Shown here one piece after another: positions 15,801 to 25,901 of a stretch of 64,000 nucleotides of DNA (position 1 is the first letter of the stretch; every line of letters starts with the position of its first letter). The translations under genes were made by a program, and so were the position numbers. The notes under the pieces are model-generated. The model did no database searches. It was given only the letters and a program-made list of their open reading frames with translations, and was not told the origin of the DNA. Where the stretch lies: sequence record NC_019423.1. One strand, written 5' to 3'. The DNA is from Escherichia phage IME11.

Positions 15801-17232
15801 TGGTGAACGTGGTAATGAACCACTGCTGCCTGTATATGATGACAAAGGGAATGTGGTTGCTTATGAGCAATCCATTGACCCTAACATGCTGAAGCACATT
15901 GAGGGTGAGAACCATCTTGCTCGTGCAATCGGTGTATGGCGTGGTCGTCAGGTAGAAGAGGCTAAGGCTCAGCGTTTCAACGATATGCTTATTGAGAACC
16001 TACATAGCATGTATGAGAACGACATTAAGATGTCTGCCTCTAATAAGTCCCAGTACGTTAACCTTCTTGGTTCTAAACTGGACCCAGTAACTGCCGATGC
16101 TCTTAAGCTGATGAATAGTGAAACTCGTCAGAAAGCAGAAAGCCTGTTTGGCCCGGGTGAGTTGTGGGTACGTCGTGATATGCTCAACGATGCTCTTGGT
16201 TATCGTGCAGCTTCTGTAGGGGATGCCTGGTCTGGTAATTCTCGTTGGTCCCCAGAAACACTGGATACCTTCAAGAAAGCTATGCTAGGTGTATTTGGCA
16301 ATCGTGCATATAAGTACACAATGGGTGGTGAGAACCTGGTTCAGAACTTAGTTAAAGAAGCTAAGACCCTGATTGTAGTTAAGTCAGTAGTCGTACCTGC
16401 AGTTAACTTCCTAGCTAACCTTTACCAGATGGTTGCTCGTGGTGTACCGGTTAAGAACATTGCTAAGAGCATTCCACAGAAGACTGCTGAGATTAACCAG
16501 TACCTGAAATCTCGTCTACGTCAGGTAGATGCAGAAGCAGAATTACGTGCAGCTACTAACCCGAACCAGATTCGTAAACTTAAGGCTGAGATTCAGTCCA
16601 TCTCTGATAGCCATAAGCGTTTAAGTATCTGGCCTCTGTTAGAAGCTGGTGAGTTCTCTTCAATTGCAGATGCTGGTATCGGACGTGATGACATCCTTAT
16701 TACTGAGGGTAAACTTCACGAATACATGGATAAGCTGGCTGATAAGCTACCTAAGTCTGTACGTAACGCAGGTCGTTATGCACTTATCACTAAGGATACT
16801 GCTCTCTTCCAGGGTATCCAGAAGACGGTTGAGTACTCTGACTTTATCGCTAAAGCAATCATCTATGATGAACTGACTCAGCGTAAAGGTAAGACTCGTG
16901 AGGAAGCACTGGGACGTGTAACGGAAGAGTTCATTAACTATGATCGTTTACCTGGTCGCTTCCGTGGGTATATGGAAAGCATTGGCTTAATGTGGTTCTA
17001 CAACTTTAAGATTCGTTCTGCAAAAGTTGCAGTGTCCATGATTCGTAATAACCCAGTACATGCTGCTATGGCTATGTTGGCTCCAACCCCTACCATGTTT
17101 GGTAATGTTGGTTTACCTATTCAGGACAACATCTTCAGCATTGCTGCACAGGGCAATCTCGGTTACTCCTTCGGTTTCGGTCAGGGCTTACGTGCCCATA
17201 ACCTGAACCCTTGGCTCAATCTTACTAACTAA
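6880..17232 (+). CDS. virion-encapsidated giant RNA polymerase (N4 vRNAP-like)
   Basis: ~3450-aa single ORF (track start 6862 is TTG; ATG at 6880 follows AGGAA). T7-like motif A YVEADGVTNGPIN (Asp codon 11446-11448), motif B RGIAKNPLTITIYGSG (~11770-11815), motif C KIFDGMNIG (Asp codon 12622-12624). The two Asp are 392 aa apart, the spacing I recall for N4 vRNAP. Confidence 0.9.
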   Translation: MSTFDRLAGFADSITNAKQVDVSTATSQKQAAQGQSPFQLTPENAYNLQTGRVGNLGTGAFDPGSLQADFTQASPLEIINKYGNEQGLQILNSRANAADVVRQDLSKQRTNSEAFGDTLSGVGLGVANTLGGIAALGTGLVNDNAGASIASGMDWLNEGVHNLQSDALNATRKVVQNQNQISAQENQKLYEEDIKNGESSLVASLSRIGRDAFDSVANTLDNGMAASDGLSEGVGSLFTGGPLIRGVSALGKVMVGGDKAVKGITLAAELGSRPAQVALSAGRVAAPAVAIGGMEAGGAYQQTASEIMKMSHQELASKSPVYRQHIADGLSPDEARRQTASETGITAAGLTAPVAAATGPLVSRFELNPLKVGSLAGAGSNMLRETVEEGIQSGFGQFAQNTAIKENVDASRDTLKGVGEQAGLGALYGFGSAGVAQAPGATVKAAGAAVGPTVRTTLAGASLVGNALAKVASPITNILVQRGEEVAKRNEQASPVSDATVNAAAQEATAQAEQAQATVQEAVDAMDISPEEKAAATQYAADLTQAMKFDPVELEQANPAIREAVSGSTNRVEAIQKMADLVNTAEDPNIQMEAAIQMYDNIMSMDSFINRDPGALANLEQGSPAANIVDQFSGLMANVQNTPKVLRAFRAIHSMIQEQAEAGKLKATEEANQAQANNIAMAADMSPEVLDADSVNMVLKHASEGKITLGNRQRAALQSAAAVLQGAREFDAKAEELGLRPQDIVSKQIKTDESRSNEGQYSALQHAKRIRSAYNSGNFDLASAYLDDFMKFAQHMQNKVGALNEHLISGNADKNKSVHYQALSPSREWVRSRTGLGVNPYDTKSVKFAQQVGLEAKTVADIANALATAYPELNVSHVKVTPLDSRLDKPAAQVVKEFRQGNLDAAQSQQTNEPVNQVDESPAPVQEATTTVQPKTKPVVENKSAPVKDTSSKPEEVTTTESETVDTALTNEDTTQEVAETKTEMETVFPVYNNDKTPSQFLKAFALPEEPKTRTIGSESPLTDVKQALSSAARFEAFTQKENNALTGDVMKRYQDLLGFGETLKSTLSDRLAKFLANKNVGKRFAEGTEANRWVGGKLLNIVEKDGDTFKFNDQLLETAVLAGLQWRLTATQNAAIKDMKDVAAITGVEVSLLPDGILADFENAQTLVEATNSLAQKIESYWGLNRNPNAPLGYTKGIPMAMATEILSSLIEMGEVKESMLDVSEIDPASNKTVGLYTIEKLDDNDAINNFPTAIEEAVLVEPEEKMYFGDDIPSVAQTQLRNPAVKNTPEQQAALKAEQATEFRVHMPMVNFYEALGRDNILELMGAGTLNPELLNVNTAKSLEGKNLSVSMAYDSLFGVINQVQEQENGLDTPIHYGYNMTRVGRMQMLGKNNPQSSKLVREAILPTFSTIDLSNENSQTFSDFQLGLAQALGIKVHNMSREAMSEKLTKALEGNLKPAVDMMVEFDKSGHLPTDAVDILKTSLGGDKSFVALMALMEYARYLNSNDRANFNTPLYVEADGVTNGPINAMVLMTGGKFTPDWIKNTAKGGLFFGKAGKTMNEHRSQDDSVDLYEASTNGLQQALGELRSTYRNNVPVMSQMSHLQKLMDLFIKDFNLNEDGTLDLKRGIAKNPLTITIYGSGARGIAGKMVSAITDTIYERFSDVLQARAADPSISPAMAMFGKEAASEADAQAMLDTFLTSMEALTGNVPVMRKGELSIQQAEGALTGKLDPQKFTVSGNALKNLQENMLHLFVEPMRTGIRNTVGEGLMHSTENLQKATQIQSLVLQDMFQQAVQAKLAEKEKDPTWKKGDFLTQKELNEIQESLSPLAPMIETGSQTFYIAGSENTDVANQVLATNLDDRMRVPMSIYAPSQAGVAGIPFMTIGTGDGMMMQTLSTMKGAPKNTLKIFDGMNIGINDITDASRKANEAVYTSWQGNPIKNVYDSFAKFMKNVDFSKLSDETKQAIAKSALEYDQREGATDDLLRIGAEQIERNLRNIALGVDIRHKVMNQVQTTVDQMAAVGAPYVNNGKISLEGLTVDQQVAKLNELFDVELNKRRDAVRAAKAEPVKEVPAMEQVGRVLKSGVRLLSNTAITKLAKEMTPEQAAVLKEVQNSLAAKDYKVVYGTPSQLDAYAIEKNITRPAPEDIEAAEAGNAYGWTNFDDKTIYLVTPSLETLVHELVHASTFESVLAHYEGTPNEAVQNIEDLMNQFRTLDVKDESPAVREAYADALNTINGHLSNGFIEPAMAKAAALNEYMAWGLTNRELIGKQKKTTALKAMVQSVYEAIKRLVFGRKKAPANADDMFSGLLFNSSVVMRGQAPTAAVAKDTTLFHNKAYGDNTRLEELGKTFDKLITNYIGSEPVQQVIRKGKFSDAVVNATKVTRDVQAHGFTMNMQEQRLFTNIVAALATEAAISPAALARAQEYYAHVTKNLTVEAFMTDPDSTNPADRYYAQQKFDTIMGANNIEFDAQGRSSLLPTFVALAMVSEDVRNVLADIPVMKADKQSGNTVDAMLTNIGTAAMASLNARVAGDTKATNVQEGMDALAQTIMQTSLNAQSFYDSVATPSGNAIDRANQYLVDSIDVLSTRALEGAREVAANTKNPLVKGAAHAAQLVAAIATEKNGAIVAEGVMAAMNQGKAWQPFHDLVNDLTGRTKSNASVYDLIKAVRAQVQADRQQFREHLPTTIASKFSRKLTNDEWKAMHTGMGKTDLAVLRDTMSLAEIRDLLTDQKIVDREVNKLEADLQKQAGRNWPLISRKSKQLAQYMINGTVGSNLLRNATAISRMLGERQAARSTVDVAQLDKLITLYALEAMNKTDREMLSSLAQTEIEGMDFATSYLVGQRKDEMAKAKSDMRATLNQYKGHIPSETKQGVNLIVAEDSQFADLIEKSYVRLGTYQGSSANRGPARSYYFAPVQAQAPFSQGILQNVRNTAGGVDLGTGFTMGSMVAGRITDKPSVDRITKALARGERGNEPLLPVYDDKGNVVAYEQSIDPNMLKHIEGENHLARAIGVWRGRQVEEAKAQRFNDMLIENLHSMYENDIKMSASNKSQYVNLLGSKLDPVTADALKLMNSETRQKAESLFGPGELWVRRDMLNDALGYRAASVGDAWSGNSRWSPETLDTFKKAMLGVFGNRAYKYTMGGENLVQNLVKEAKTLIVVKSVVVPAVNFLANLYQMVARGVPVKNIAKSIPQKTAEINQYLKSRLRQVDAEAELRAATNPNQIRKLKAEIQSISDSHKRLSIWPLLEAGEFSSIADAGIGRDDILITEGKLHEYMDKLADKLPKSVRNAGRYALITKDTALFQGIQKTVEYSDFIAKAIIYDELTQRKGKTREEALGRVTEEFINYDRLPGRFRGYMESIGLMWFYNFKIRSAKVAVSMIRNNPVHAAMAMLAPTPTMFGNVGLPIQDNIFSIAAQGNLGYSFGFGQGLRAHNLNPWLNLTN

Positions 17233-17266
17233 ATAAAAAAGCCCCTCTAGTGAGGGGCTTTACTTT
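17233..17266. terminator. bidirectional rho-independent terminator between convergent vRNAP and minus-strand block
   Basis: AAATAAAAAA-GCCCCTC-tagt-GAGGGGC-TTTACTTT: 7-bp GC stem flanked by an A-run and a T-run. Confidence 0.7.
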
Positions 17267-17501
17267 AGAATCTTTCAATTCGTTTATTTAGTACATATAG
17301 ATAGGAACCCATAGCTTGATGTTGTAACCCAAGCAGGTATTTCTCTTCCGGTTCAATATCACGTGCTTTGGGACTGAGTAATAAATCACCTAAAGCTTCA
17401 TACTTCTCTTTGAGATTATCTCTTTCCACTAATACTCTTACTTGATATGCTGCAAATGATTTAGTCATGTGTTCTCCACATCTTAGGCTTACGCCCTTCA
17501 C
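17265..17501 (-). CDS. hypothetical protein
   Basis: 78-aa ORF at the distal end of the minus-strand block. Confidence 0.4.
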   Translation of the reverse strand: MKGVSLRCGEHMTKSFAAYQVRVLVERDNLKEKYEALGDLLLSPKARDIEPEEKYLLGLQHQAMGSYLYVLNKRIERF

Positions 17502-17694
17502 TTAGGAATTTACCAGTCTCCTTAATCTTCTGTAGTGTTTCCTCAGAAGGGAACCACAGGAATGAGAAGTAAAGTTTCTTAGCTACGTAACGAGTTACTC
17601 CTAGTTTCTCTGCGATTTCATCAAATGAATATGTACGGACGGTATTGTTGAGAATGGCCTCACGAACAACAGAGGTAATAGATACTTGTGTCAT
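17461..17694 (-). CDS. hypothetical protein (possible small DNA-binding protein)
   Basis: 77-aa ORF; short HTH-like stretch; overlaps its neighbour by 41 nt. Confidence 0.4.
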   Translation of the reverse strand: MTQVSITSVVREAILNNTVRTYSFDEIAEKLGVTRYVAKKLYFSFLWFPSEETLQKIKETGKFLSEGRKPKMWRTHD

Positions 17695-17704
17695 GCTATC
17701 TTCC

Positions 17705-18205
17705 TTACAGAATTACCCAGTCTTCTGCTAATACATCTGATTGGGATGGAACCCAAGGCATAAACTGGTCATCGACAGTTTTGATTCCCAACCACGGGCG
17801 TGGCTTCAGTTCATCAGCAAATCCTGGACGCTCTAAGCTACTACTGTTCCAATCTTGAGCGTCAACGTACTCAACATACATTCCTTTTCCGTTCCAACCT
17901 TTGCGGGCTAGCTTGAATCCTGATTTGAGAAGCTCTACTGCATGACCAAAGGTACAACCTTTTTCTACGTCATGGTATGCAGCTTCGAATGCAGTTTTAG
18001 GTGACCAGCTAATATAGCCACGGAACTGAGGATGGTTGGACTTCGAGTCTGGATACTCAACTAAGTAACCTACTTCTAGCGGGTCTTCATCTGCTGGTAC
18101 ATCCCAGCCACGAAGTTTGCAGTATGTTTCTTTGTTCATCCGGAAACCATTTACACACTTGGTTCCGATATAGTTGGTGAAATGGACTTTAATTTCTTCT
18201 GACAT
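17705..18205 (-). CDS. DUF2829-domain (Tad2-like) protein with extra N-terminal domain
   Basis: ATG at 18205 with GAGGT RBS (track ORF extends to 18343). C-terminal half LKSGFKLARKGWNGKGMYVEYV...RPWLGIKT...MPWVPSQSDVLAEDWVIL matches the DUF2829 pattern as I recall it. Confidence 0.5.
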   Translation of the reverse strand: MSEEIKVHFTNYIGTKCVNGFRMNKETYCKLRGWDVPADEDPLEVGYLVEYPDSKSNHPQFRGYISWSPKTAFEAAYHDVEKGCTFGHAVELLKSGFKLARKGWNGKGMYVEYVDAQDWNSSSLERPGFADELKPRPWLGIKTVDDQFMPWVPSQSDVLAEDWVIL

Positions 18206-18349
18206 AACTACCTCAAATGATAAAGCCCTCACTAGGAGGGCTTGTTTTGTTTTGGCTTCTAAAGCCTTACCACATGTCGGGTAGTTCTGTACCTTTCGGT
18301 GAAAACTACCATATACCTGTTTGCTAAATGGTGCAACCACCACTAACTT

Positions 18350-18598
18350 TTATTTAGAATATTGCCCTTTCGTATACTCAATGAAGTATCCGAACTTAGC
18401 TTCATACTCTGTAGGGGGATGTTTGCTTACATGGTGTTTAGCCATACTAAGTAATTCCTTTTCCAACTTATTTACATTGATTGTATCTGCTGTTTCCCCA
18501 ATAGGGAACTTATGGTGGTAAGCTGGTTCAGAAGTAATTTTTCCGCTTTTAGCTAAAACTTTAACGGAAGCAAACCCAACTTTAGGGTTTATATCCAT
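18350..18598 (-). CDS. hypothetical protein
   Basis: 82-aa ORF abutting its neighbour. Confidence 0.4.
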   Translation of the reverse strand: MDINPKVGFASVKVLAKSGKITSEPAYHHKFPIGETADTINVNKLEKELLSMAKHHVSKHPPTEYEAKFGYFIEYTKGQYSK

Positions 18599-19020
18599 TA
18601 GATTTTACAACCCCCACCTTCACACTCATTATTTTCCAGGAAGCCCTTCAGCATTTCTTGGCTCTGAGCTTGCTCATGCAGATTCTGCTTAAGCAGGTAA
18701 CCTTCCAGTAACCAGACCTTATCGATTGCATTTTCATAGGCAATCTTACGCCCAATTTCTTCGTTGAAGTTTCCCGGGGATGCACAGGCAGACTCACCAG
18801 TAACAGTGAAGCCATTCTCCAGAACCAGTACACAGAAAGTCAGCAGAGATAGTGACTGTACTTCCTGGTTCTTAATGGTTGCTAAGTCTGGTAGTACAGA
18901 TGCTGCACCATCCAGGCCAGTAAAGAAGTAAGTACCAAGTACTTTACTCTTGATGTGGTCAGGGGTAATGCGTGGAGCTTTATCAGCACCAGCTTCTTTA
19001 ATCTGTTGTTCGAGTTCCAT
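18598..19020 (-). CDS. N4 gp49-like protein (Phage_gp49_66 family)
   Basis: ATG at 19020 with GAGGA RBS (track start 19047); segment TFCVLVLENGFTVTGESACASPGNFNEEIGRKIAYENAIDKVWLLEGYLL resembles the gp49/Sf6 gene 66 family. Confidence 0.5.
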   Translation of the reverse strand: MELEQQIKEAGADKAPRITPDHIKSKVLGTYFFTGLDGAASVLPDLATIKNQEVQSLSLLTFCVLVLENGFTVTGESACASPGNFNEEIGRKIAYENAIDKVWLLEGYLLKQNLHEQAQSQEMLKGFLENNECEGGGCKI

Positions 19021-19046
19021 AGATTCCTCAGTGTTTATGTTATTCA

Positions 19047-19069
19047 AATAAAAAAGTCCCCCAGAGGGG
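19047..19069 (-). terminator. putative rho-independent terminator downstream of the tRNA cluster
   Basis: Minus-strand reading gives CCCC-tct-GGGG followed by ACTTTTTTATTT. Confidence 0.45.
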
Positions 19070-19328
19070 CGACTCTAGGGGACTTAGTACTATTTACCCA
19101 TAGCTGGGAGGCTTTTGGTTCTTACCACGAAGACAGTCCACGCTGACTAGGCTTGGGATTGATAGTCCCGTTCCTGTGGTAATTACTCAGGCTAGGATTT
19201 AAGGAGTTCCTATTCTCCAGCGAAATTCCCGTCGAGGGGAATAACAATACAATAGCAGTCACTGGACTGTCTTACCAGTGTTGTCTTTAGAGTGCTATGC
19301 AATCAGGACTATGTTACTGCTGAATGGG

Positions 19329-19402
19329 TGTCCACTACTGGATTTGAACCAGTGACTTTCCGATTATTAGTCGGTTGCTTTCCCCGTCTAAGCTAAGTGG
19401 AC
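19329..19402 (-). tRNA. tRNA; manual fold gives anticodon loop CUAAUAA (anticodon AAU, Ile-reading) - needs software confirmation
   Basis: 74-nt cloverleaf: 7-bp acceptor GTCCACT/AGTGGAC, D arm GCTT/AAGC, anticodon stem CCGA/TCGG, T arm ACTGG-TTCAAAT-CCAGT; CCA not encoded. Confidence 0.6.
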
Positions 19403-19408
19403 TTATTA

Positions 19409-19484
19409 TGGTTACCCAGGCAGGATTCGAACCTGCGTCCTAGTTGGTTTACTAGTGGGGCTTTACCACTAAGCCTACTGGGTA
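19409..19484 (-). tRNA. tRNA-like gene with encoded CCA and non-canonical anticodon loop (6 or 8 nt)
   Basis: 76 nt: perfect 7-bp acceptor TACCCAG/CTGGGTA, D arm GGCT/AGCC, T arm GCAGG-TTCGAAT-CCTGC, discriminator A plus CCA. The anticodon arm only pairs as CTAGT/ACTAG with a 6-nt loop (AAACCA) or as a 4-bp stem with an 8-nt loop. Confidence 0.55.
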
Positions 19485-19724
19485 TTAATAGGGGAGTCAT
19501 GCCAGGCTTTAACTGGCTCCTTCTTCGCAATCCTTACATACCCCTACATAATTATTGCGTTAAGCTTTTTTGTTTAAGTTTAAGTGAAGGCGTTCTTGCT
19601 GACTCATTGTTGGATGCTCCCGGGTATCTGAACTATTGAACGGGTGTTTCCAGCCATGCAGGCGTTCAAGATGTTTGGGAGCATAATTCTTTCAATTCAG
19701 AGTAGCACTGTTGCAGTCGTCACT

Positions 19725-19798
19725 GCCCATAGGTAAGGATTCGAACCTTACAATACCGTTAGTTTGCAACGTCGCTGTACCATTTCGCGTTCTATGCA
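19725..19798 (-). tRNA. tRNA-like element, possibly degenerate
   Basis: T arm TAAGG-TTCGAAT-CCTTA present; acceptor pairing has a G-G mismatch; anticodon loop lacks U33; resembles the neighbouring element. Confidence 0.3.
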
Positions 19799-19812
19799 AT
19801 GCTACTTTGAAT

Positions 19813-19879
19813 TGGTTCCGGCGTCTGGACTCGAACCAGAACACTCACGTTTGTGCACAACGCTAGTACCTACACCGGA
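19813..19879 (-). tRNA. compact tRNA-like gene (67 nt, encoded CCA, anticodon loop GUGCACA suggesting GCA/Cys, reduced D arm)
   Basis: Acceptor TCCGGTG/CGCCGGA (one G-U), T arm TCTGG-TTCGAGT-CCAGA, anticodon stem GCGTT/AACGT, 3' ACCA; only 7 nt where the D arm should be. Confidence 0.4.
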
Positions 19880-21105
19880 ATTAATTGCCAGGGATTCCAC
19901 CTGGCTCTATCTGTTTTTATAGTCACTCAGATATCGTCTGGACTTGTTGTGGTGACCGGTACTGATCTCCGGCATAAGGCGCTTATTCGGCGGCGTCGAG
20001 CTTGCTTATTCGCTTGAGCCATCCTCGTGAGTCAGCCACGTCCCACTGCGCATCAGCCTGCACATTCACCACAACGGAAAGAGCACTGATGCGCTCACTT
20101 GGGACTCCTTAGCCATAACCCACGGGCTTCTGGTACACCAATGCTCTTACCTGTTGTGTGCCCATTATTAATCACACCGGGCCAGTGCGCCGAATTTGTT
20201 TACAAGGAATCGGAAGACCTTGCTGACTTATAGGCTATTACGCCGCCATCAGAACAACATCATCGTTTGCATTTATGTTATTGGTTCGTTTCTAAAAAAC
20301 CACATAATCGCTTACGAAAACTATCAAAGAGTACACTTACTCGACTGGTTAAACTACATCTGTCCAGCTCCGCAACAAATATACTCATTGATAGGATGTC
20401 ATAATAGGGGAGGGAGGACGAATCCCTCTTTACCCTATGGTTTAGTTTACATGTAAGACCTAACATCTCTATGCTGGATGAATAGCGTAATGAACTATCC
20501 GACATCATTGGTTAATGTTGTGCTCAACATGAGCGTTAGTTGATAAGGGATCTGAAGCCTTATCCTAAAGATACTAACCTTTGGGATATAGCCTAAGATT
20601 CAGAAATGGCCCCTATAGGGAGAGGCCATTGATTAACCCGAATGTTGCTTTACATTTTCTGTGATAACCCATTCTTAAAATAGTCTACCTGACGGATGGG
20701 AGTTAACCCTAGCGTCAGTGCCATACGGCAAAGATTAAGTTAAGAAAGGTTACGATAGGAGTTCCTATCTCAAAGGATTCTAACAGAACCCTTCACGATA
20801 TTAACTATTCATTGTGAAATTCTTTGTTTCCTTCAGCAGGTTCTACACCCAAGAAAAAGCTAACTTTTCCACTTAGTTTAGATTGAACCAATGGACTTCG
20901 GAGAGTATTAAAGCCCACTGGTTCGGTTGTTGTTGTTACTCTGGCGGCTTGTCACCACCGTGTTTACCACTGCATTTCCACAGGATAATGACAGTGATGA
21001 TAAAAGCTATGTATGGAGCCGACACGTCTATAATCCTGACCAGTAGTAGCATCAGGACTATAAACACTACCACACCTAGCAGCAGCTTCTGAGCCACCTA
21101 CCAGA

Positions 21106-21546
21106 TTAACTACGTTTCAGGCCAGCGAACAGTGAAGGTTTCGCAGCAGGTTTCTCTACTGGTTCTTCAGCCTTAACTTCTTCCTGCACAACTTCTTCTT
21201 GTGCTTCTGGTTCAGCTACTGCTTCTTCTTCAGGTTCCGGCGTAGAACTCTCGTTCTGACCACCAGTAGAGGTCTGGGTTTCTTCTACCTTTACCTCTTC
21301 AACTACTTCTTCCGGCTCTGGTTCTACCGGGCGATGTTTAGCTTCTTGAGGGTTCTTACGAGAACGGCGAGTTTTCTTCTCTACTCCCACGGGTGGAGTA
21401 TCTTCATGAACCTCTTCGTTGATGCCAACGGAGGCAGTACCATCTGCATTGATGACAATACTAATGTCACCAGCAAGATTGATTTGATCATCGACATAAG
21501 CCTGTACAGCAGCTTCTACTTCGGACTGGTTCAAAATGATTTGCAT
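21106..21546 (-). CDS. acidic Glu-rich hypothetical protein
   Basis: 146-aa ORF with ATG start; extremely Glu/Val/Pro-rich C-terminal half; stop overlaps the RuvC-like start. Confidence 0.5.
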   Translation of the reverse strand: MQIILNQSEVEAAVQAYVDDQINLAGDISIVINADGTASVGINEEVHEDTPPVGVEKKTRRSRKNPQEAKHRPVEPEPEEVVEEVKVEETQTSTGGQNESSTPEPEEEAVAEPEAQEEVVQEEVKAEEPVEKPAAKPSLFAGLKRS

Positions 21547-21547
21547 A

Positions 21548-22102
21548 TTACGCCTTTAATAACTTAATGAGGTTCTGGAAAGCTGAGAGATTTACACCAG
21601 CATGTATTGCACCGATTGCATCTGCTAAGTGCTCATTCTTATTCAGAAGTTTACCCTTCTTATCAGTGAGCCAGTTGGCTTCAGGATAGATGGCATGAGC
21701 AGCACGAATCATCGTGTCTTTGGATGCAGTTTTATCACCGACCAGTGCAAGTTTGTTTTCAATTGGGGATACTTCAAAGATTGGACAACCCAATGCACGA
21801 AATGCACCTATTAATCCTACGCATACGCCATATGATTTCATACCGTTAGCAGACTGAGAGCCTACTGGTACTTCTACGAATACTGCTTTAGCAGATCGTA
21901 ACCATTCTTCACAACCAAGAAACAAATCGTGAGCGGCTTGTATATCTTTGGAGTTGGTTCGAACTTGTTTGTTGTGGTCAACTTCAGTTTGAACCAGTTT
22001 AAGTTCGACCTGCTCGAAGACGCCGGACTCAATGTCCAGCATCCCACGAGCTAAACCCCAATTGCGGAGACTAATGTCTGCACCGACAATTGGGATTTTC
22101 AT
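21548..22102 (-). CDS. RuvC-like Holliday junction resolvase
   Basis: 184 aa; N-terminal KIPIVGADIS, mid VFVEVP, C-terminal HLADAIGAIHAG match RuvC-family acidic catalytic positions. Confidence 0.6.
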   Translation of the reverse strand: MKIPIVGADISLRNWGLARGMLDIESGVFEQVELKLVQTEVDHNKQVRTNSKDIQAAHDLFLGCEEWLRSAKAVFVEVPVGSQSANGMKSYGVCVGLIGAFRALGCPIFEVSPIENKLALVGDKTASKDTMIRAAHAIYPEANWLTDKKGKLLNKNEHLADAIGAIHAGVNLSAFQNLIKLLKA

Positions 22103-22899
22103 TATTTCTTACCGAACAGTGATTTACCACCAGCAGGAGTAGTACCTGTGCCAGCACCTGGTTTAGGAGGCAATCCACCTTTACCATTACCACCGGCAGA
22201 ACTCTTAGTTTTATCACGAGTCTTGCCTTTGTTCTTCTCCAACCATGCTGCATGGAATACAGCCAGTTCTGGGGTCAGTTCTTTTTCAGCCTTCTCTGCT
22301 TCCTGAGCCTCAACGACTGTGACCAGCAGTTCCGGGTGAAACACTTTCTGAATCTCGTTTACTTCACGGGTTTCACCGGAGTCAACGTAACCGTTGTCAC
22401 CCTTGACCTGCTTAGCTTCCAGAACCTTTTCCAGAGCAAAGGTAACAGTCTGTCCAACCAGTTCAACCGGAACCATGACAGACTTATTAACTTCTGCTTT
22501 AGCGTCGAAATCGTAGACTTTAACAATCTTCTCTTCGAAATCTGCTTCAGGCAGTTCAGTACCAGTTGCCATCAGCATCATGTCATTAATGACAGTGTAG
22601 CCAGGCAGGAAGTACTCTTTACCGTTCTTCTCGTAAGTTGGCTTGTTGCCTTTAGCATTACCGGAAGTGAAGTACACCTGGGCACGGAACTCACCGGCAG
22701 GTACGCCATCAGAGTTCTTCAAGTTTTCAATAATTAACTGCATCCAGTCTGCACCAGAGTCAGCTTTACCTACGTAAGCTACTTTTACAGTACCGGTGTA
22801 GATATCGGATTCTTTTGCACCGAAGCCACCACCACCCAGGGAGTCTTTAACAGCTTCAACGTTTTTGGTTTTTTCTTTCAGATTACTGAACAATGACAT
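22102..22899 (-). CDS. putative single-stranded DNA-binding protein (N4 SSB-like by size and position)
   Basis: 265-aa ORF with Gly-rich N- and C-terminal tails, sited between recombination and resolvase genes; assignment is by synteny and size only. Confidence 0.4.
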   Translation of the reverse strand: MSLFSNLKEKTKNVEAVKDSLGGGGFGAKESDIYTGTVKVAYVGKADSGADWMQLIIENLKNSDGVPAGEFRAQVYFTSGNAKGNKPTYEKNGKEYFLPGYTVINDMMLMATGTELPEADFEEKIVKVYDFDAKAEVNKSVMVPVELVGQTVTFALEKVLEAKQVKGDNGYVDSGETREVNEIQKVFHPELLVTVVEAQEAEKAEKELTPELAVFHAAWLEKNKGKTRDKTKSSAGGNGKGGLPPKPGAGTGTTPAGGKSLFGKK

Positions 22900-22938
22900 A
22901 TGATTTTCCTAATAAGTGATTAACAACCAGGCAAACGC

Positions 22939-23691
22939 TTAAGCGTAGTATTCAGCCAGATGGTCTAAGAGTTTCTGGGCATCGTTGTCGATATAAGTCT
23001 CGGACTTATCGAACATACCCATTGGGGAACGAAGTCGTTTGCCAACTGACTTCTTGGTTGGACGGGTCTGGAATACGTGCTTATACCCTAAGTCACGTTC
23101 TTCTTCCGTAATTTCAAGCATCTTGTTCCCATACTTCTCCAGTTCTTTAATGTCTACGCGTTCTGCGTAAACTACTGTAGAGAAGTAGGCTTCAAGTCCG
23201 TTATTCTTCAGGGAGCCTTTCACTGGGATGAATGTTTTAATCACACCAGCAGCTTCATCCAGTTCGTCTTTAGCATGTGCAGTAATGATTACTGGCTTAC
23301 CAAATTTAACAACTTTCTGTTGTAGCAGTACTTTAAAGAATTGTGCAAAGTCCCCCCAAGCCTTTTGCGTATTTGCAGAAGGCAGAACATACTGTGATTC
23401 CAGCATGTCCATCATGAAGGTTGCTGAGTCAATAATGATACCATCAACATCGTCTGCCATTTCTCCACCCGGAGATGCAACATCAAATGCTTCCCAGATT
23501 TGATATGGGTCTTCAATGTTATAAGTGTTGAACTTGTTACGGAAAGGCAGACGCTTACCTGCTTCAGTATTCAGATATAACCAGCGTTCCTGGTTCCGGA
23601 TGTTGCGCAGTGATGCTGATTTACCACTCGCTGAGAATCCTGCAATCAGGATTAGCTGAGTGTTCATATCATTGGAGATTTCTTCGGACAT
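22939..23691 (-). CDS. Sak4-like RecA-fold ATPase (AAA_24-like)
   Basis: Walker A GFSASGKSAS and Walker B IIIDSATFMMD in a 250-aa protein. Confidence 0.6.
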   Translation of the reverse strand: MSEEISNDMNTQLILIAGFSASGKSASLRNIRNQERWLYLNTEAGKRLPFRNKFNTYNIEDPYQIWEAFDVASPGGEMADDVDGIIIDSATFMMDMLESQYVLPSANTQKAWGDFAQFFKVLLQQKVVKFGKPVIITAHAKDELDEAAGVIKTFIPVKGSLKNNGLEAYFSTVVYAERVDIKELEKYGNKMLEITEEERDLGYKHVFQTRPTKKSVGKRLRSPMGMFDKSETYIDNDAQKLLDHLAEYYA

Positions 23692-23747
23692 TATTTTTCC
23701 TCGTTTAGTTTAGGAGTCCTTCAAACCAAAGAAAGACTCCTGTTTGC

Positions 23748-25901
23748 TTATTTGCCAGCGAAGCGTTTAGCCACGGTGACCATTACGGTTGCATTCAATT
23801 CATCATCCGGCAACGGATTAGCCAGTTTCTTATTGAATGAGTAGACGGCTTGCTGTACTTGAGCAAAGTCCCAACCACTGTCTACTAATGCCAGTGCGTA
23901 TTTAATCATTTGATTATTACGATTACCGGAGGCAATACGACCAGCGAACCAACGCTCCAGATTATCCAACGACTGTACTTCCTTCATCTGGTTCTGGAAC
24001 TGCTCGTTCTTACTGGTACGAGGAATAAAGTCACGCACGTCCAACAGATTCGCATCAAGGTTGTAATGATAGGAACCAGTTTCACAGGACATCCACTTCT
24101 TGGCTCGTTGGTTAGCAGACTCATCCGTTTCGAATGGTAGCCAAGCCATAACGTTATTCATGAACTCTTTGTATTCCTCAGTGTCGAGGTGTAACTCATA
24201 GTTCATTGGAATAATTAGACGGAAGCGGTTCTCTTCATTAGAATGACGCTTAGTGGTATAGGTCATGAACTTATATTCCTTCATTAGTTCATGGCACGTA
24301 TGCAGTGGTACTCCACCATCACAATCAATAACAATCATGTTAAATCCTGGAATAACGTTCTCTTCAGAACGATGCCCATTCTTCATGTGATGGTTTACCC
24401 AGTGCATACCGGGAGCTTGGGTTAATACATGTAGCTGGTCAAACGGTACACGTTCACCAACATAGTCATAAGCAAAGCTATCACTATATGCCACCAGCAT
24501 CTCATTGGTGTCAGTCTCTTTCAGAGTCTCACCACGGAAGAACTCAATACCTTCATTGAAGGTCTTCTTAATAATGATGTGCTGTTTGTAACCCCATGCT
24601 GTAGCAAGAGTCATCATCTCATTACGAGCTGCATTACCACTCTTATAGAAAGGTAAAGACTCCAGTAAGTCAGCATGAGTTACTTCTTTACCTACGGAAG
24701 CAATGTACTTAGCCAGCTTCACATAAGCCTTCTCACGATTGAGGATTGTCTGGAATGCTGCCCCGGATTCCTCTACGAGCAGGATTGCTTGTTTAAGGTG
24801 AGTCATTTCAATGAATGAACTCTGGTCAACAAACGCCAGTGCACCTGCCAGCTTAAGAGCCTTGAAGTAACGGTGGGATATTTCAGCCTTACGAATTTCT
24901 TCGTGGTCAGCCATAGCCTCTGCTTGTTTCTCACAATCAATTTTGTAAGTAATCAGAGCAATACCCACTGCATCTTCCACAATCATCTTAAAGCCAAACA
25001 GGTTTGGGTCAGCCAAACTATGGAAGTGGTTAGCCCACTTACCAAGAGACTGTACGTTATCCTGCTTAATCAGGTTGCGGTAGATTTCTTCCGGGGTCAG
25101 CGTTGCATGTGCTCGTTTGTCTAAGTGCCCAATGGCAAACAGGCAGCGACGTGCATACCCTGTATCCAGGAAATCATAGAACTGGTCTTCAGTCTGACCA
25201 CCGTCCAGCAACTTACTTGGAGTACCAAATAACAGTAGGTTAGCGGGGGTCTTACCATCCAGTTCTTCGCCACGAACACTTTCAGCAGTGTTCTTGGTTA
25301 GTTTCTGCTTAACTTTCCCCTGGTCATACAACTCAAGGAACAGGTTAAGAACTTCAACGTTAGCAATGAGGTTGGAACCAATCTCATCAATCTGTAGGTT
25401 AATAGCGCCACAACCAGCCATAAGCAGTTTGTGACGAAGCTGTTTTACAGCAGGTGCTGTACCGGAGTCGAATGTGAATGGGAATGCCCCAGCACGTTTA
25501 TATTCTGCTTCAACTTTATCAAACTCTTCCTGCTGGTCAGTGCCCTGACGTGCAGAACGTTCGTTAGCAATCTTCCATAGACGGTCATTTGCAATGACGG
25601 GCATGGTGTCTTCCATAAAACGTTTACGGAAGCCAGTCATGAACCCGTCTTCAATGATATTTACTGAGTGACCTTTACCGAAACCAGATGTAGCCAACGC
25701 CATAGCGTAGATGTTTACCGGCAGGTCACCACGGTCTTTAGTTACGATGGTTGCACCCATGCAGGATGCCATTTTAGCCAAGAAGTAGGCCACTTCGACA
25801 CGGAAGAATCCCCGGTCATTATTCTGGGTTTTATTGCAGAGCACATCTACGATTTCTTCAATCGCTGGATGGTGCACTACTCCGGTAAGGTCAATACTCA
25901 T
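23748..25901 (-). CDS. putative DNA primase / replication initiation protein
   Basis: Track ORF to 25958 starts at TTG; ATG at 25901. Contains hhhDxD-type motif MIVIDCDGG and a C-terminal region reminiscent of primase C-terminal domains. Confidence 0.5.
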   Translation of the reverse strand: MSIDLTGVVHHPAIEEIVDVLCNKTQNNDRGFFRVEVAYFLAKMASCMGATIVTKDRGDLPVNIYAMALATSGFGKGHSVNIIEDGFMTGFRKRFMEDTMPVIANDRLWKIANERSARQGTDQQEEFDKVEAEYKRAGAFPFTFDSGTAPAVKQLRHKLLMAGCGAINLQIDEIGSNLIANVEVLNLFLELYDQGKVKQKLTKNTAESVRGEELDGKTPANLLLFGTPSKLLDGGQTEDQFYDFLDTGYARRCLFAIGHLDKRAHATLTPEEIYRNLIKQDNVQSLGKWANHFHSLADPNLFGFKMIVEDAVGIALITYKIDCEKQAEAMADHEEIRKAEISHRYFKALKLAGALAFVDQSSFIEMTHLKQAILLVEESGAAFQTILNREKAYVKLAKYIASVGKEVTHADLLESLPFYKSGNAARNEMMTLATAWGYKQHIIIKKTFNEGIEFFRGETLKETDTNEMLVAYSDSFAYDYVGERVPFDQLHVLTQAPGMHWVNHHMKNGHRSEENVIPGFNMIVIDCDGGVPLHTCHELMKEYKFMTYTTKRHSNEENRFRLIIPMNYELHLDTEEYKEFMNNVMAWLPFETDESANQRAKKWMSCETGSYHYNLDANLLDVRDFIPRTSKNEQFQNQMKEVQSLDNLERWFAGRIASGNRNNQMIKYALALVDSGWDFAQVQQAVYSFNKKLANPLPDDELNATVMVTVAKRFAGK

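Follow-up and report, generated by a model that had tools for sequence, protein, structure and literature searches.

A single stretch of 64,000 nucleotides from Escherichia phage IME11 (NC_019423.1), hereafter the window, was analyzed, and the element described here lies on its minus strand at 20325-20158, in a region poor in open reading frames (ORFs) next to a cluster of transfer RNA (tRNA) genes. Judged from sequence, the element is very probably a tag module that derives from transfer-messenger RNA (tmRNA) and is maintained by selection: it is homologous to tmRNA, has a covarying structure, carries a tag under coding constraint and is widely distributed. Our preferred reading, to which we give a probability of about 0.5, is that the region specifies a co-transcribed, minus-strand array of structured RNAs that continues the tRNA cluster, and that the core of this array is a template for trans-translation supplied by the phage. 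The tag frame and the pseudoknots at 20325-20158 are the feature of the region that matters, and they had no place in a preliminary description of the same DNA. Matches of the segment 19300-21200 identify the phage as a G7C-like (Gamaleyavirus), N4-like coliphage of the Schitoviridae.

A tag frame set in a covarying RNA fold

The module, a tmRNA-like mRNA-like domain, extends from GAUAGUUUUCG through the end of its last pseudoknot (20158-20325, minus strand), and is supported by sub-threshold Rfam hits and by homologues. Its parts follow one another, 5′ to 3′, as a fold resembling pseudoknot 1 (PK1) of tmRNA, a resume codon, a tag, a hairpin holding the stop codon and two further pseudoknots (PK2 and PK3). 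By direct reading of 20238-20270, the resume codon GCA (20270-20268) opens a tag of ten codons (20270-20241), GCA AAC GAU GAU GUU GUU CUG AUG GCG GCG, which encodes ANDDVVLMAA and is closed by UAA (20240-20238), itself followed by UAG. As in tmRNA, the frame has no start codon: it opens at the resume codon and runs to a stop, and an in-frame UAG lies eight codons upstream. In the aligned Rfam hit AUAAAU stands directly 5′ of GCA; AUA occupies positions -6 to -4 relative to the resume codon, which we take to match A84-U85-A86 of E. coli tmRNA, the triplet that sets the frame with SmpB.

Pattern scans of viral contigs yielded 129 copies of the tag in 37 distinct DNA versions, and exactly ten codons are present in 127 of the 129. 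The copies encode 24 peptides, all of the form AN[DE]... with A-A or V-A at the end, and ANDDVVLMAA occurs in six DNA versions that differ at synonymous sites only. The stop codon varies between UAA, UAG and UGA, always at the same position. Along a minimum spanning tree of the 37 sequences, changes at codon positions 1, 2 and 3 number 23, 22 and 44, respectively; synonymous changes make up 38 of 89 when read in the tag frame vs. 9 of 86 and 21 of 87 for the alternative frames, which in most tag sequences contain stops. The tag of phage Marshall, GCU AAU GAU AAC ACG UUC CUG GCA GUA GCU UAA, specifies the same peptide as that of phage K751 with three synonymous changes; those of Hena2 (ANDAQFLAVA) and SE131 (ANDNAFRVAA) likewise have ten codons each. 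At the level of these comparisons, the tag frame evolves like a translated sequence under coding constraint.

Coding constraint without a tRNA-like domain would also be explained if the module encoded a free peptide. The pseudoknot that lies shortly upstream of the alanine codon would then recruit ribosomes without initiator tRNA, in the manner of an internal ribosome entry site (IRES), and ANDDVVLMAA, as a mimic of the tag, would vie for ClpXP/SspB with phage proteins and with proteins that carry the ssrA tag. We consider this very improbable: there is neither a Shine-Dalgarno sequence nor an in-frame start codon, the 6-nt spacer and the overall layout are tmRNA-like and not IRES-like, and we know of no such initiation on native bacterial or phage RNAs.

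The structure was examined in an alignment (A1) of 36 sequences less than 96% identical to one another, with the pseudoknots written into the structure. Pairing is found in 80.6% of cells vs. 72.3% in shuffles, and both partners of a pair have changed in 122 cells, compared with 41 ± 6.6 in shuffled alignments (0 of 500 as high) and 13-33 in controls with slid partners. Covariation is present in five helices, i.e., the stop-codon hairpin (helix 5) and both stems of PK2 and of PK3. The helix-5-like hairpin (20223-20252, minus strand) consists of CUGA...UCAG with an inner GGC/GCC and holds the stop codon in its loop; its outer stem is 99% paired, and columns 87/110 are A-U in 18 sequences and G-C or C-G in 18. 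In PK2 (20190-20222, minus strand; CAAGG/CCUUG and CCGA/UCGG), columns 117/138 are C-G in 18 and U-A in 15, and columns 130/149 are G-C in 18, A-U in 10 and C-G in 4. PK3 (20160-20188, minus strand; GCAC/GUGU and GCCC/GGGC) has a conserved loop, GAUUAAUAA (20173-20165), and a G-U pair at columns 153/177 in 30 of the 36 sequences, from which it follows that the transcribed strand is the minus strand. In tmRNA a hairpin presents the stop codon and the tag lies between pseudoknots; the module shares this arrangement insofar as compensatory changes support helix 5, PK2 and PK3, and a PK1 is plausible.

The PK1-like region (20278-20322, minus strand) pairs AGUUUU (20322-20317) with GAAAC (20292-20288) and AUUAU-G-UGGUU with AACCA-AUAA. 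Its first helix is paired in 94.7% of cells yet almost invariant, its second aligns poorly between subtypes, and it includes a conserved, mostly unpaired GUUUUCG that resembles the D-loop motif of tmRNA. Folding z-scores of -1.49 (minus) and -2.67 (plus), which are single-sequence energies from a model that leaves pseudoknots out, are uninformative. Predicted promoters did not exceed shuffle expectation in a promoter and terminator scan, and the single "terminator" was the 3′ strand of the element labelled X2.

The same evidence bears on whether the region acts as DNA, as an origin or a packaging or regulatory site, or simply holds ordinary small protein genes, which is the least probable of the readings considered and one to which we give hardly any credence. 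The region is indeed ORF-poor and contains inverted repeats, and hypothetical genes are called in relatives (e.g., the 77-aa Gp51 of phage 24-32N and ten tiny coding sequences in phage nithesis). Cumulative GC skew, however, falls steadily over 17000-24000 with no turning point, which lends no support to the replication origin suggested in the preliminary description; the conserved features are RNA helices whose G-U pairs make them strand-specific, so that they work only on the minus-strand transcript and leave no strand-symmetric origin signature. As to small genes, annotations disagree on which ORFs they call, the called ORFs overlap the pseudoknots, and a 76-aa ORF (20278-20508) crosses the tag and PK1 with an upstream half that is hypervariable among close relatives. 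Homologous phages, checked for ordinary genes at this position, hold none that convinces, only tiny ORF calls that conflict between annotations; nothing beyond tRNAs and hypothetical ORFs of small size is annotated in the three relatives whose records were examined, and the ORF calls disagree with one another.

A sensitive BLAST search with 19900-20480 (minus strand) matched 797 phage records, and the segment common to nearly all of them, ~20311-20159, is the tag region. The matched groups include Ackermannviridae of the Vi1-like type (K751, Marshall), the Felix O1-like Felixounavirus and Kolesnikvirus (pinkbiff, Hena2), Chaseviridae (Faunus), a Klebsiella siphovirus (GP-1), Grimontviridae (SE131), other N4-like phages and Stx/lambdoid phages, so that the module is present in at least six unrelated phage groups. 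It is always on the strand of the adjacent tRNAs, inside, beside or at the head of the tRNA array, and it is unannotated in every phage or bacterial case met. A scan of one genome per species confined it to Enterobacterales (Escherichia, Pseudocitrobacter, Rouxiella, Erwinia, Rosenbergiella and Pantoea). The lambdoid version occurs, again unannotated, in 171 of 5426 complete E. coli genomes. In the lambdoid prophage examined it lies in an 870-nt gap that separates the gene for the Q antiterminator from that for the holin, i.e., in the leader of the late operon, and in Stx-type prophage contigs it starts directly after a terminator-like hairpin, upstream of tRNA genes. This niche, downstream of Q and PR′, is shared with the "moron" small RNAs (sRNAs) of lambdoid late leaders (StxS, AgvB, AsxR, the Pas sRNAs and STnc100), but these are Hfq-dependent base-pairing RNAs of 50-80 nt with neither tag frame nor pseudoknots. 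Known prophage sRNAs (STnc100, AgvB, AsxR and others) were rejected as candidates, as none gave an Rfam hit at gathering thresholds in 14 loci, and the literature searched on the Stx late leader and on prophage sRNAs makes no mention of such an element.

Such a distribution is also relevant to the possibility that the module is an inactive remnant of a once complete (permuted) phage tmRNA, functionless and hitch-hiking in mobile tRNA-array modules. The defining half of tmRNA is missing, the adjacent tRNA-like genes of the window are visibly degenerate, and the region is mosaic: the closest match to 19300-21200, Escherichia phage 24-32N, has 95.9% identity over 91% of the query, and the patchy coverage of the remaining relatives, only 57-81% in 2-7 pieces, is the reason for calling it so. 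In a relic, however, frame-breaking changes would be expected, whereas 127 of the 129 copies keep ten codons and a stop; the helices covary, six or more unrelated phage groups and 171 E. coli genomes have retained the module, and it is conserved while its immediate surroundings are hypervariable. A relic is thus improbable. Something similar can be said of the degraded acquired segment proposed in the preliminary description, which was right insofar as the modules are mosaic and common to unrelated phage families, but the modules are conserved and constrained and not decaying; the degraded parts are the adjacent tRNA-like genes (19725-19891).

Kinship with one-piece and two-piece tmRNAs

At a permissive threshold, four tmRNA models of Rfam match in three unrelated loci, all of them below gathering threshold. 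In the window, tmRNA_permuted (RF04321) matches 20238-20386 (minus strand) with 33.1 bits (gathering 47; E 4.4e-4) and alpha_tmRNA (RF01849) reaches 21.1 bits (gathering 50). Locus L004 gives 32.3 bits with tmRNA_permuted and 24.1 bits with beta_tmRNA (RF01850; gathering 84), and locus L006 gives 15.2 bits with tmRNA (RF00023; gathering 47) over model positions 56-294. Partial hits to tmRNA, beta_tmRNA and tmRNA_permuted occur in Felix O1-like and Klebsiella loci, and no model reaches its gathering threshold in any case. Together with the five covarying helices and the coding-constrained tag frame, these hits bear out the structured non-coding RNA that the preliminary description had listed among its candidates.

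The alignment score of the tag region is 57-58 to permuted tmRNAs of viral contigs vs. 21 to E. coli ssrA. Two permuted tmRNAs of this kind, on viral contigs L018 and L046, have the tags ANDERFLMAA and ANDNAFLMAA and a resume context in common with the module, and their 5′ tRNA-like segment carries UAGUUUCGACAAGGCAA, which UAGUUUUCGUAAGCGA of the module resembles. Because of this better alignment and of the partial Rfam hits, the module is best described as a derivative of the coding piece of a two-piece tmRNA. A scan of IMG/VR contigs (L008-L121) with the 14-mer ATAAATGCAAACGA also turned up 26 tmRNAs called by ARAGORN, of which 24 are permuted two-piece forms and two, in L060 and L120, are of standard form; contigs of phages or prophages thus seem often to carry permuted tmRNAs.

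Two-piece (permuted) coding pieces (RF04321, RF01849, RF01850 and viral L018 and L046) are thus the closest sequence relatives of the module. They share with it AAUAAAUGCAAACGA at the resume codon, a D-loop-like UAGUUUCGAC motif followed by a GC-rich strand, and a coding function carried on an RNA separate from the CCA end. On the other hand, a genuine coding piece begins with a 5′ acceptor strand (GGGGCUG) before its D-loop-like GGUUUCGAC motif, a strand absent from the module, and is encoded just downstream of an acceptor piece with which it pairs, whereas no pairing partner was identified for the module. The one-piece tmRNA (ssrA, RF00023) has in common with the module a GCA resume codon without a start, a 10-residue tag that begins AND... 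and ends in two small hydrophobic residues (ANDENYALAA in the host), a stop codon placed in the loop of a hairpin, a plausible pseudoknot on the 5′ side of the tag and covarying ones on its 3′ side, and AUA at -6 to -4. In contrast with it, the module lacks an acceptor stem, G3-U70, a T-arm with ACCA and the P2 closure, has only two pseudoknots after the tag, scores below all Rfam tmRNA thresholds, is unseen by ARAGORN, and is encoded by phages inside tRNA arrays. By its sequence, then, the core has kept the D-loop-like motif, the PK1-like fold, the resume context, the tag and the pseudoknots, and has lost the acceptor stem and the T-arm.

A candidate template without a tRNA-like half

According to the preferred reading, the array would be transcribed together with the tRNAs, and the module would be cut from the precursor, for example at the hairpins (X) and tRNA-like elements that flank it. 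Once excised, it would act in the infected cell as a phage-specified template for trans-translation, releasing ribosomes stalled during infection with nascent chains that end in (A)ANDDVVLMAA and not in the (A)ANDENYALAA of the host. Since the module has no tRNA-like domain of its own, coupling would have to take place in trans, to an aminoacylated tRNA-like partner and host SmpB; this partner could be the tRNA-like domain of host tmRNA or one of the anticodon-less tRNA-like elements found alongside the module in each phage group. That the module is expressed, processed and coupled in this way is in every part our inference, and the template mechanism taken by itself is put at slightly less than even odds.

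Several observations weigh against this proposal. To our knowledge, trans-translation from a template untethered to a tRNA-like domain has never been shown. ARAGORN found no tmRNA in the window (-m, default, -ps90 and -ps80) or in ~127 family loci, Rfam at gathering thresholds reported only two tRNAs and no tmRNA in the whole 64 kb, and a custom scan of the 64 kb for a T-arm, U70, G3 and a 7-bp acceptor stem returned chance-level hits without CCA. The modules of L004 and L093 start directly after a promoter, and those of Stx-type prophages directly after a terminator. No base-pairing link from the module to any partner was found, with the X stems and the tRNA-shaped element Y1 tested. The X stems were rejected as a P2-like closure, in view of compensatory changes that fall within each hairpin and of the many members without an upstream copy; Y1 was rejected as a partner pairing with the 5′ end of the module, its pre-hairpin segment being variable and without covariation. 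Moreover, no more than 42 of 85 unique modules are followed by X and no more than 33 of 85 by Y; X and Y are frequent companions of the module and not obligatory parts. Finally, the scan pattern fixed GCAAACGA, so that the conservation of the first tag codons is partly ascertainment, and for this reason three weak BLAST hits outside the reach of the pattern were fetched, namely those in Marshall, Hena2 and SE131, all of which have kept the frame.

The missing half was looked for in further ways. No tmRNA-type acceptor stem with G3-U70 and 3′ (A)CCA was found by ARAGORN in the window or in the ~127 loci, and the custom T-arm/U70/G3 search across the family loci gave nothing credible; the best hit of the scan in the window, CCGUGGG...CCUAUGG (T-arm 19752-19735), has no CCA and is of a kind of which ~0.5 are expected by chance. 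Minus-strand T-loop motifs occur only in tRNAs or their remnants (19329-19891), so that no canonical T-arm belongs to the module, and the strands that might have formed a P2 helix, the X stems, form local hairpins. In GP-1-like and some Felix O1-like phages, the end of a good sigma-70-like promoter lies 7-10 nt 5′ of GUUUUCG; where a promoter or a terminator abuts GUUUUCG in this way, the module has no room for a 5′ acceptor strand. Compared with a two-piece coding piece, the D-loop-like GUUUUCG is present, the acceptor strand is absent, and no locus has an acceptor piece upstream. A standard or permuted tmRNA with an intact tRNA-like domain is thereby rejected, as neither ARAGORN nor Rfam (gathering threshold or E-value) finds one. 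Since no locus has an alanine-type tRNA-like domain, the module is not a member of the tmRNA family: it falls outside on the defining tRNA-like features and inside on the mRNA-like ones.

The absence of any tRNA-like domain would also suit an untranslated mimic, and the main rival to the template reading is a decoy or inhibitor that would imitate the body of tmRNA, titrate the factors that bind to tmRNA elsewhere than at its tRNA-like domain (secondary sites of SmpB, ribosomal protein S1, RNase R), and so dampen or redirect host trans-translation. There is a mirror-image precedent: mycobacteriophage DS6A carries a tmRNA that consists of the tRNA-like domain (TLD) only, an example of half a tmRNA carried by a phage, and tmRNA is strongly inhibited by a similar molecule, perhaps via SmpB titration (PMC4131195). 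Other phage tmRNAs (e.g., of mycobacteriophages Bxz1, Cali and Catera and of Bacillus phage G) are likewise phage genes that intervene in host ribosome rescue, but these are complete, whereas DS6A has the TLD without a tag and the module is the mRNA-like half alone. A mimic would also be compatible with a GUUUUCG that is conserved but unpaired in some subtypes. A decoy nevertheless leaves unexplained why the excess of third-position and synonymous changes is seen in the tag frame only, why the first codons are synonymously recoded in Marshall, why UAA, UAG and UGA interchange at a fixed position and why the length of ten codons is so strict, and we regard it as unlikely.

A broader version of the template reading would hold that at least six unrelated enterobacterial phage lineages carry a split-tmRNA class, in which a free-standing tag module is loaded in trans with host SmpB and a separate or host tRNA-like domain, rewriting the tag or boosting rescue, and in which the X and Y scaffolds form a modular RNA array that delivers it along with other cargo RNAs. 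We put this forward only tentatively, as a generalization that is rather doubtful.

The surrounding array, neighbouring genes and significance

The module is flanked by further structured elements on the same strand. Immediately 3′ of it, the hairpin X (20076-20157, minus strand) has a long conserved stem, ACAACAGGUAAGAGCAUU/AGUGCUCUUUCC, which recurs with unrelated interiors in many phages and in which L004 and L005 differ by a compensatory change from A-U to G-C; X is possibly a processing site. Next comes Y1 (19946-20075, minus strand), a tRNA-shaped element of 130 nt closed by a 10-bp stem, GUUGUGGUGA/UCACCACAAC, whose interior comprises a hairpin, GUGCAGGCUGAUGCGC, a variable middle and a second hairpin, GCCGG-AGAUCAGUA-CCGGU. 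Y1 has no CCA, no G3-U70 and no canonical T-loop; the 9-nt loop of its 3′ hairpin, AGAUCAGUA, contains a UUC that is not conserved. Among 28 distinct Y1 copies the ends are conserved and the middle is variable, and in L177, L151 and L199 a Y1-type stem encloses canonical D- and T-arms. On the 5′ side, an upstream X-like hairpin (20323-20392, minus strand; AUCAAUGAGUAUA.../...UGUACUCUUUGAU; -22.5 kcal/mol) has stems conserved in all Gamaleyavirus loci and a hypervariable interior, for which even L003, with 96% identity across 730 nt of flanking DNA, has a wholly different sequence. This interior measures 40-90 nt and is unrelated in sequence and length between near-identical phages (L001-L003, L113, L158, L178, L207 and L216). 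The variable interiors of X1, X2 and Y1 have no blastn match in the 5426 E. coli genomes (E ≤ 0.01), so that a host-derived or host-targeting nature was rejected for them, and the interiors of the X and Y scaffolds match no Rfam family.

Other signals were noted along the array. A G-rich/C-rich hairpin, GAGGGAUUCGUCCUCCCUC, at 20404-20438 (minus strand) is flanked by AUAGGG/CCCUAU, and Gamaleyaviruses conserve it with some variation; in the window phage it has the appearance of a T-arm, but the register fails in relatives and this assignment was rejected. Junctions between modules carry CA-rich runs such as CCACCACAACACACAACAGG (19946-19955 in the window; array junctions in L032, L091 and L131), which presumably resemble the C/A-rich target motif of the host sRNA GcvB, mimicked by the prophage anti-sRNA AgvB.

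Downstream in the direction of transcription, ARAGORN calls two tRNAs on the minus strand (19327-19402 and 19409-19484). The second has good acceptor, D and T arms and an encoded ACCA, with an anticodon loop of only 6 nt (CUAGU-AAACCA-ACUAG); it is called "tRNA-??? (ac)" by ARAGORN, scores 42.8 bits with the Rfam tRNA model, has no G3-U70 and is conserved in related Gamaleyaviruses, where it is annotated "tRNA-OTHER." This tRNA-like gene is unable to decode normally. A degenerate tRNA-Cys(GCA)-like gene at 19817-19891 (minus strand; acceptor UCCGGUG/CGCCGGA, ACCA encoded, D-arm mostly lost) is detected by ARAGORN under relaxed settings only, and its counterpart in relatives is annotated tRNA-Cys. 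The second degenerate tRNA-like gene within 19725-19891 is a remnant whose T-arm is perfect (UAAGG-UUCGAAU-CCUUA, 19752-19735) and which has no acceptor stem to match; relatives have intact or differently called tRNAs (Cys, Ala, Ser-like) at this place.

Two unusual tRNA-like elements were met in other family loci. Felix O1-like contigs (L093, L103, L149, L190, L218 and L222) encode, 155-266 nt past the resume codon, an 82-nt tRNA-like RNA (CGGGGCG...CGCCUCG-ACCA) with G3-U70 and A73, the identity elements of alanine, a UCU (Arg) anticodon loop, a long variable region and no D-arm, which ARAGORN misses. It is the only recurrent element with G3-U70 and ACCA across all family loci. As the tRNA-like domain of a tmRNA it was rejected, given that it has the UCU loop and replaces the normal tRNA-Arg(UCU) of sister phages, which makes it a D-armless variant of tRNA-Arg; it could be a mischarging or dual-identity tRNA. 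Salmonella phage Marshall (L266), ~215 nt past the tag, and L203 have an anticodon-less mini tRNA-like element with an irregular acceptor (AUGGGAG/CUCCAAU, G-A at 3:70), a canonical T-arm and an encoded CCA, its anticodon arm being replaced by a hairpin with a GNRA cap. The element has the look of a TLD-only RNA that, in Ackermannviridae, follows closely on the tag module.

The preliminary description had presented 19880-21105 as a 1.2-kb stretch without a convincing ORF. This holds for 19880-20935, where the ORFs of at least 25 aa are all short, overlapping and on both strands, but the right edge was overstated: 20936-21097 (minus strand) is probably a real gene for a small, hydrophobic membrane protein of 53 aa, found intact by tblastn in six related loci and 85% identical at the amino acid level in L178, the most divergent of them. 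The coding evidence is modest, since the DNA is identical in most relatives; with this probable gene set aside, the non-coding stretch is ~1.05 kb and not 1.2 kb. The GC-rich left part is real, with a GC fraction of 0.50-0.54 at 19800-20199 vs. 0.38-0.46 on either side. The three repeats described there all exist, each 1-2 nt from where it had been placed: the 9-bp inverted repeat GCGCATCAG/CTGATGCGC at 20048-20056 and 20086-20094 (plus strand), the hairpin ATAAG-gcg-CTTAT at 19974-19986 and AATGGCC...GGCCATT at 20605-20630. The first two fall within Y1 and X. We estimate that ~0.5 perfect 9-bp inverted repeats (arms at most 100 nt apart) would occur by chance in 1.2 kb, so that this one, although present, does not exceed chance, and its arms are not conserved as a pair: the right arm is half of the conserved hairpin GUGCAGGCUGAUGCGC (20063-20048, minus strand), and the left arm lies in a segment that differs among relatives and is missing, for example, in L004.

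The third repeat lies within a block (20521-20813) that is ~95% conserved among Gamaleyaviruses, with almost no indels and no codon periodicity, between indel-rich flanks. The plus strand of its hairpin reads CTATAGGGAGA, which we take to coincide exactly with the 3′ portion of the T7 class III promoter, and the block may be a promoter, a regulatory site or another RNA. Just past the tRNAs, a 149-aa ORF (18598-19047, minus strand) appears, from its position, to match the 393-nt gene for Gp52 of phage 24-32N, annotated "anti-CRISPR protein."

Earlier surveys give little sign of such elements. A 2014 census of tmRNA listed viral ssrA only in mycobacteriophages (including DS6A) and Bacillus phage G, and in no enterobacterial phage; a 2025 database holds 79 phage tmRNAs together with forms that lack the coding sequence, from a pipeline that inspects tRNA-like segments; and a genome report that includes Felixounavirus phages found no tmRNAs. 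The full-text literature searched contains no description of a tmRNA-like element in these phages, and within that literature a tmRNA derivative reduced to the mRNA-like domain appears to be undescribed in enterobacterial phages. Standard tools (ARAGORN, Rfam/PGAP) are blind to the module, and genome reports state "no tmRNA." The module sits in well-studied genomes, among other places in the Stx late leader just upstream of tRNAs and stx, in coliphages that are therapeutic candidates and in Salmonella phages. With a covariance model of the module, ~800 deposited phage genomes could be annotated and spurious calls of small ORFs cleared away.

Some lambdoid and P22-type phages depend on host tmRNA, a dependence that becomes directly testable with these elements. 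More generally, on the prevailing view tmRNA functions only if its tRNA-like and mRNA-like domains are joined, covalently or by base pairing. An mRNA-like half that is conserved and under coding constraint, and for which no tRNA-like half can be detected, challenges this view: either trans-translation can proceed on a template that is not tethered, or phages interfere with ribosome rescue and ssrA-dependent proteolysis by a new route.

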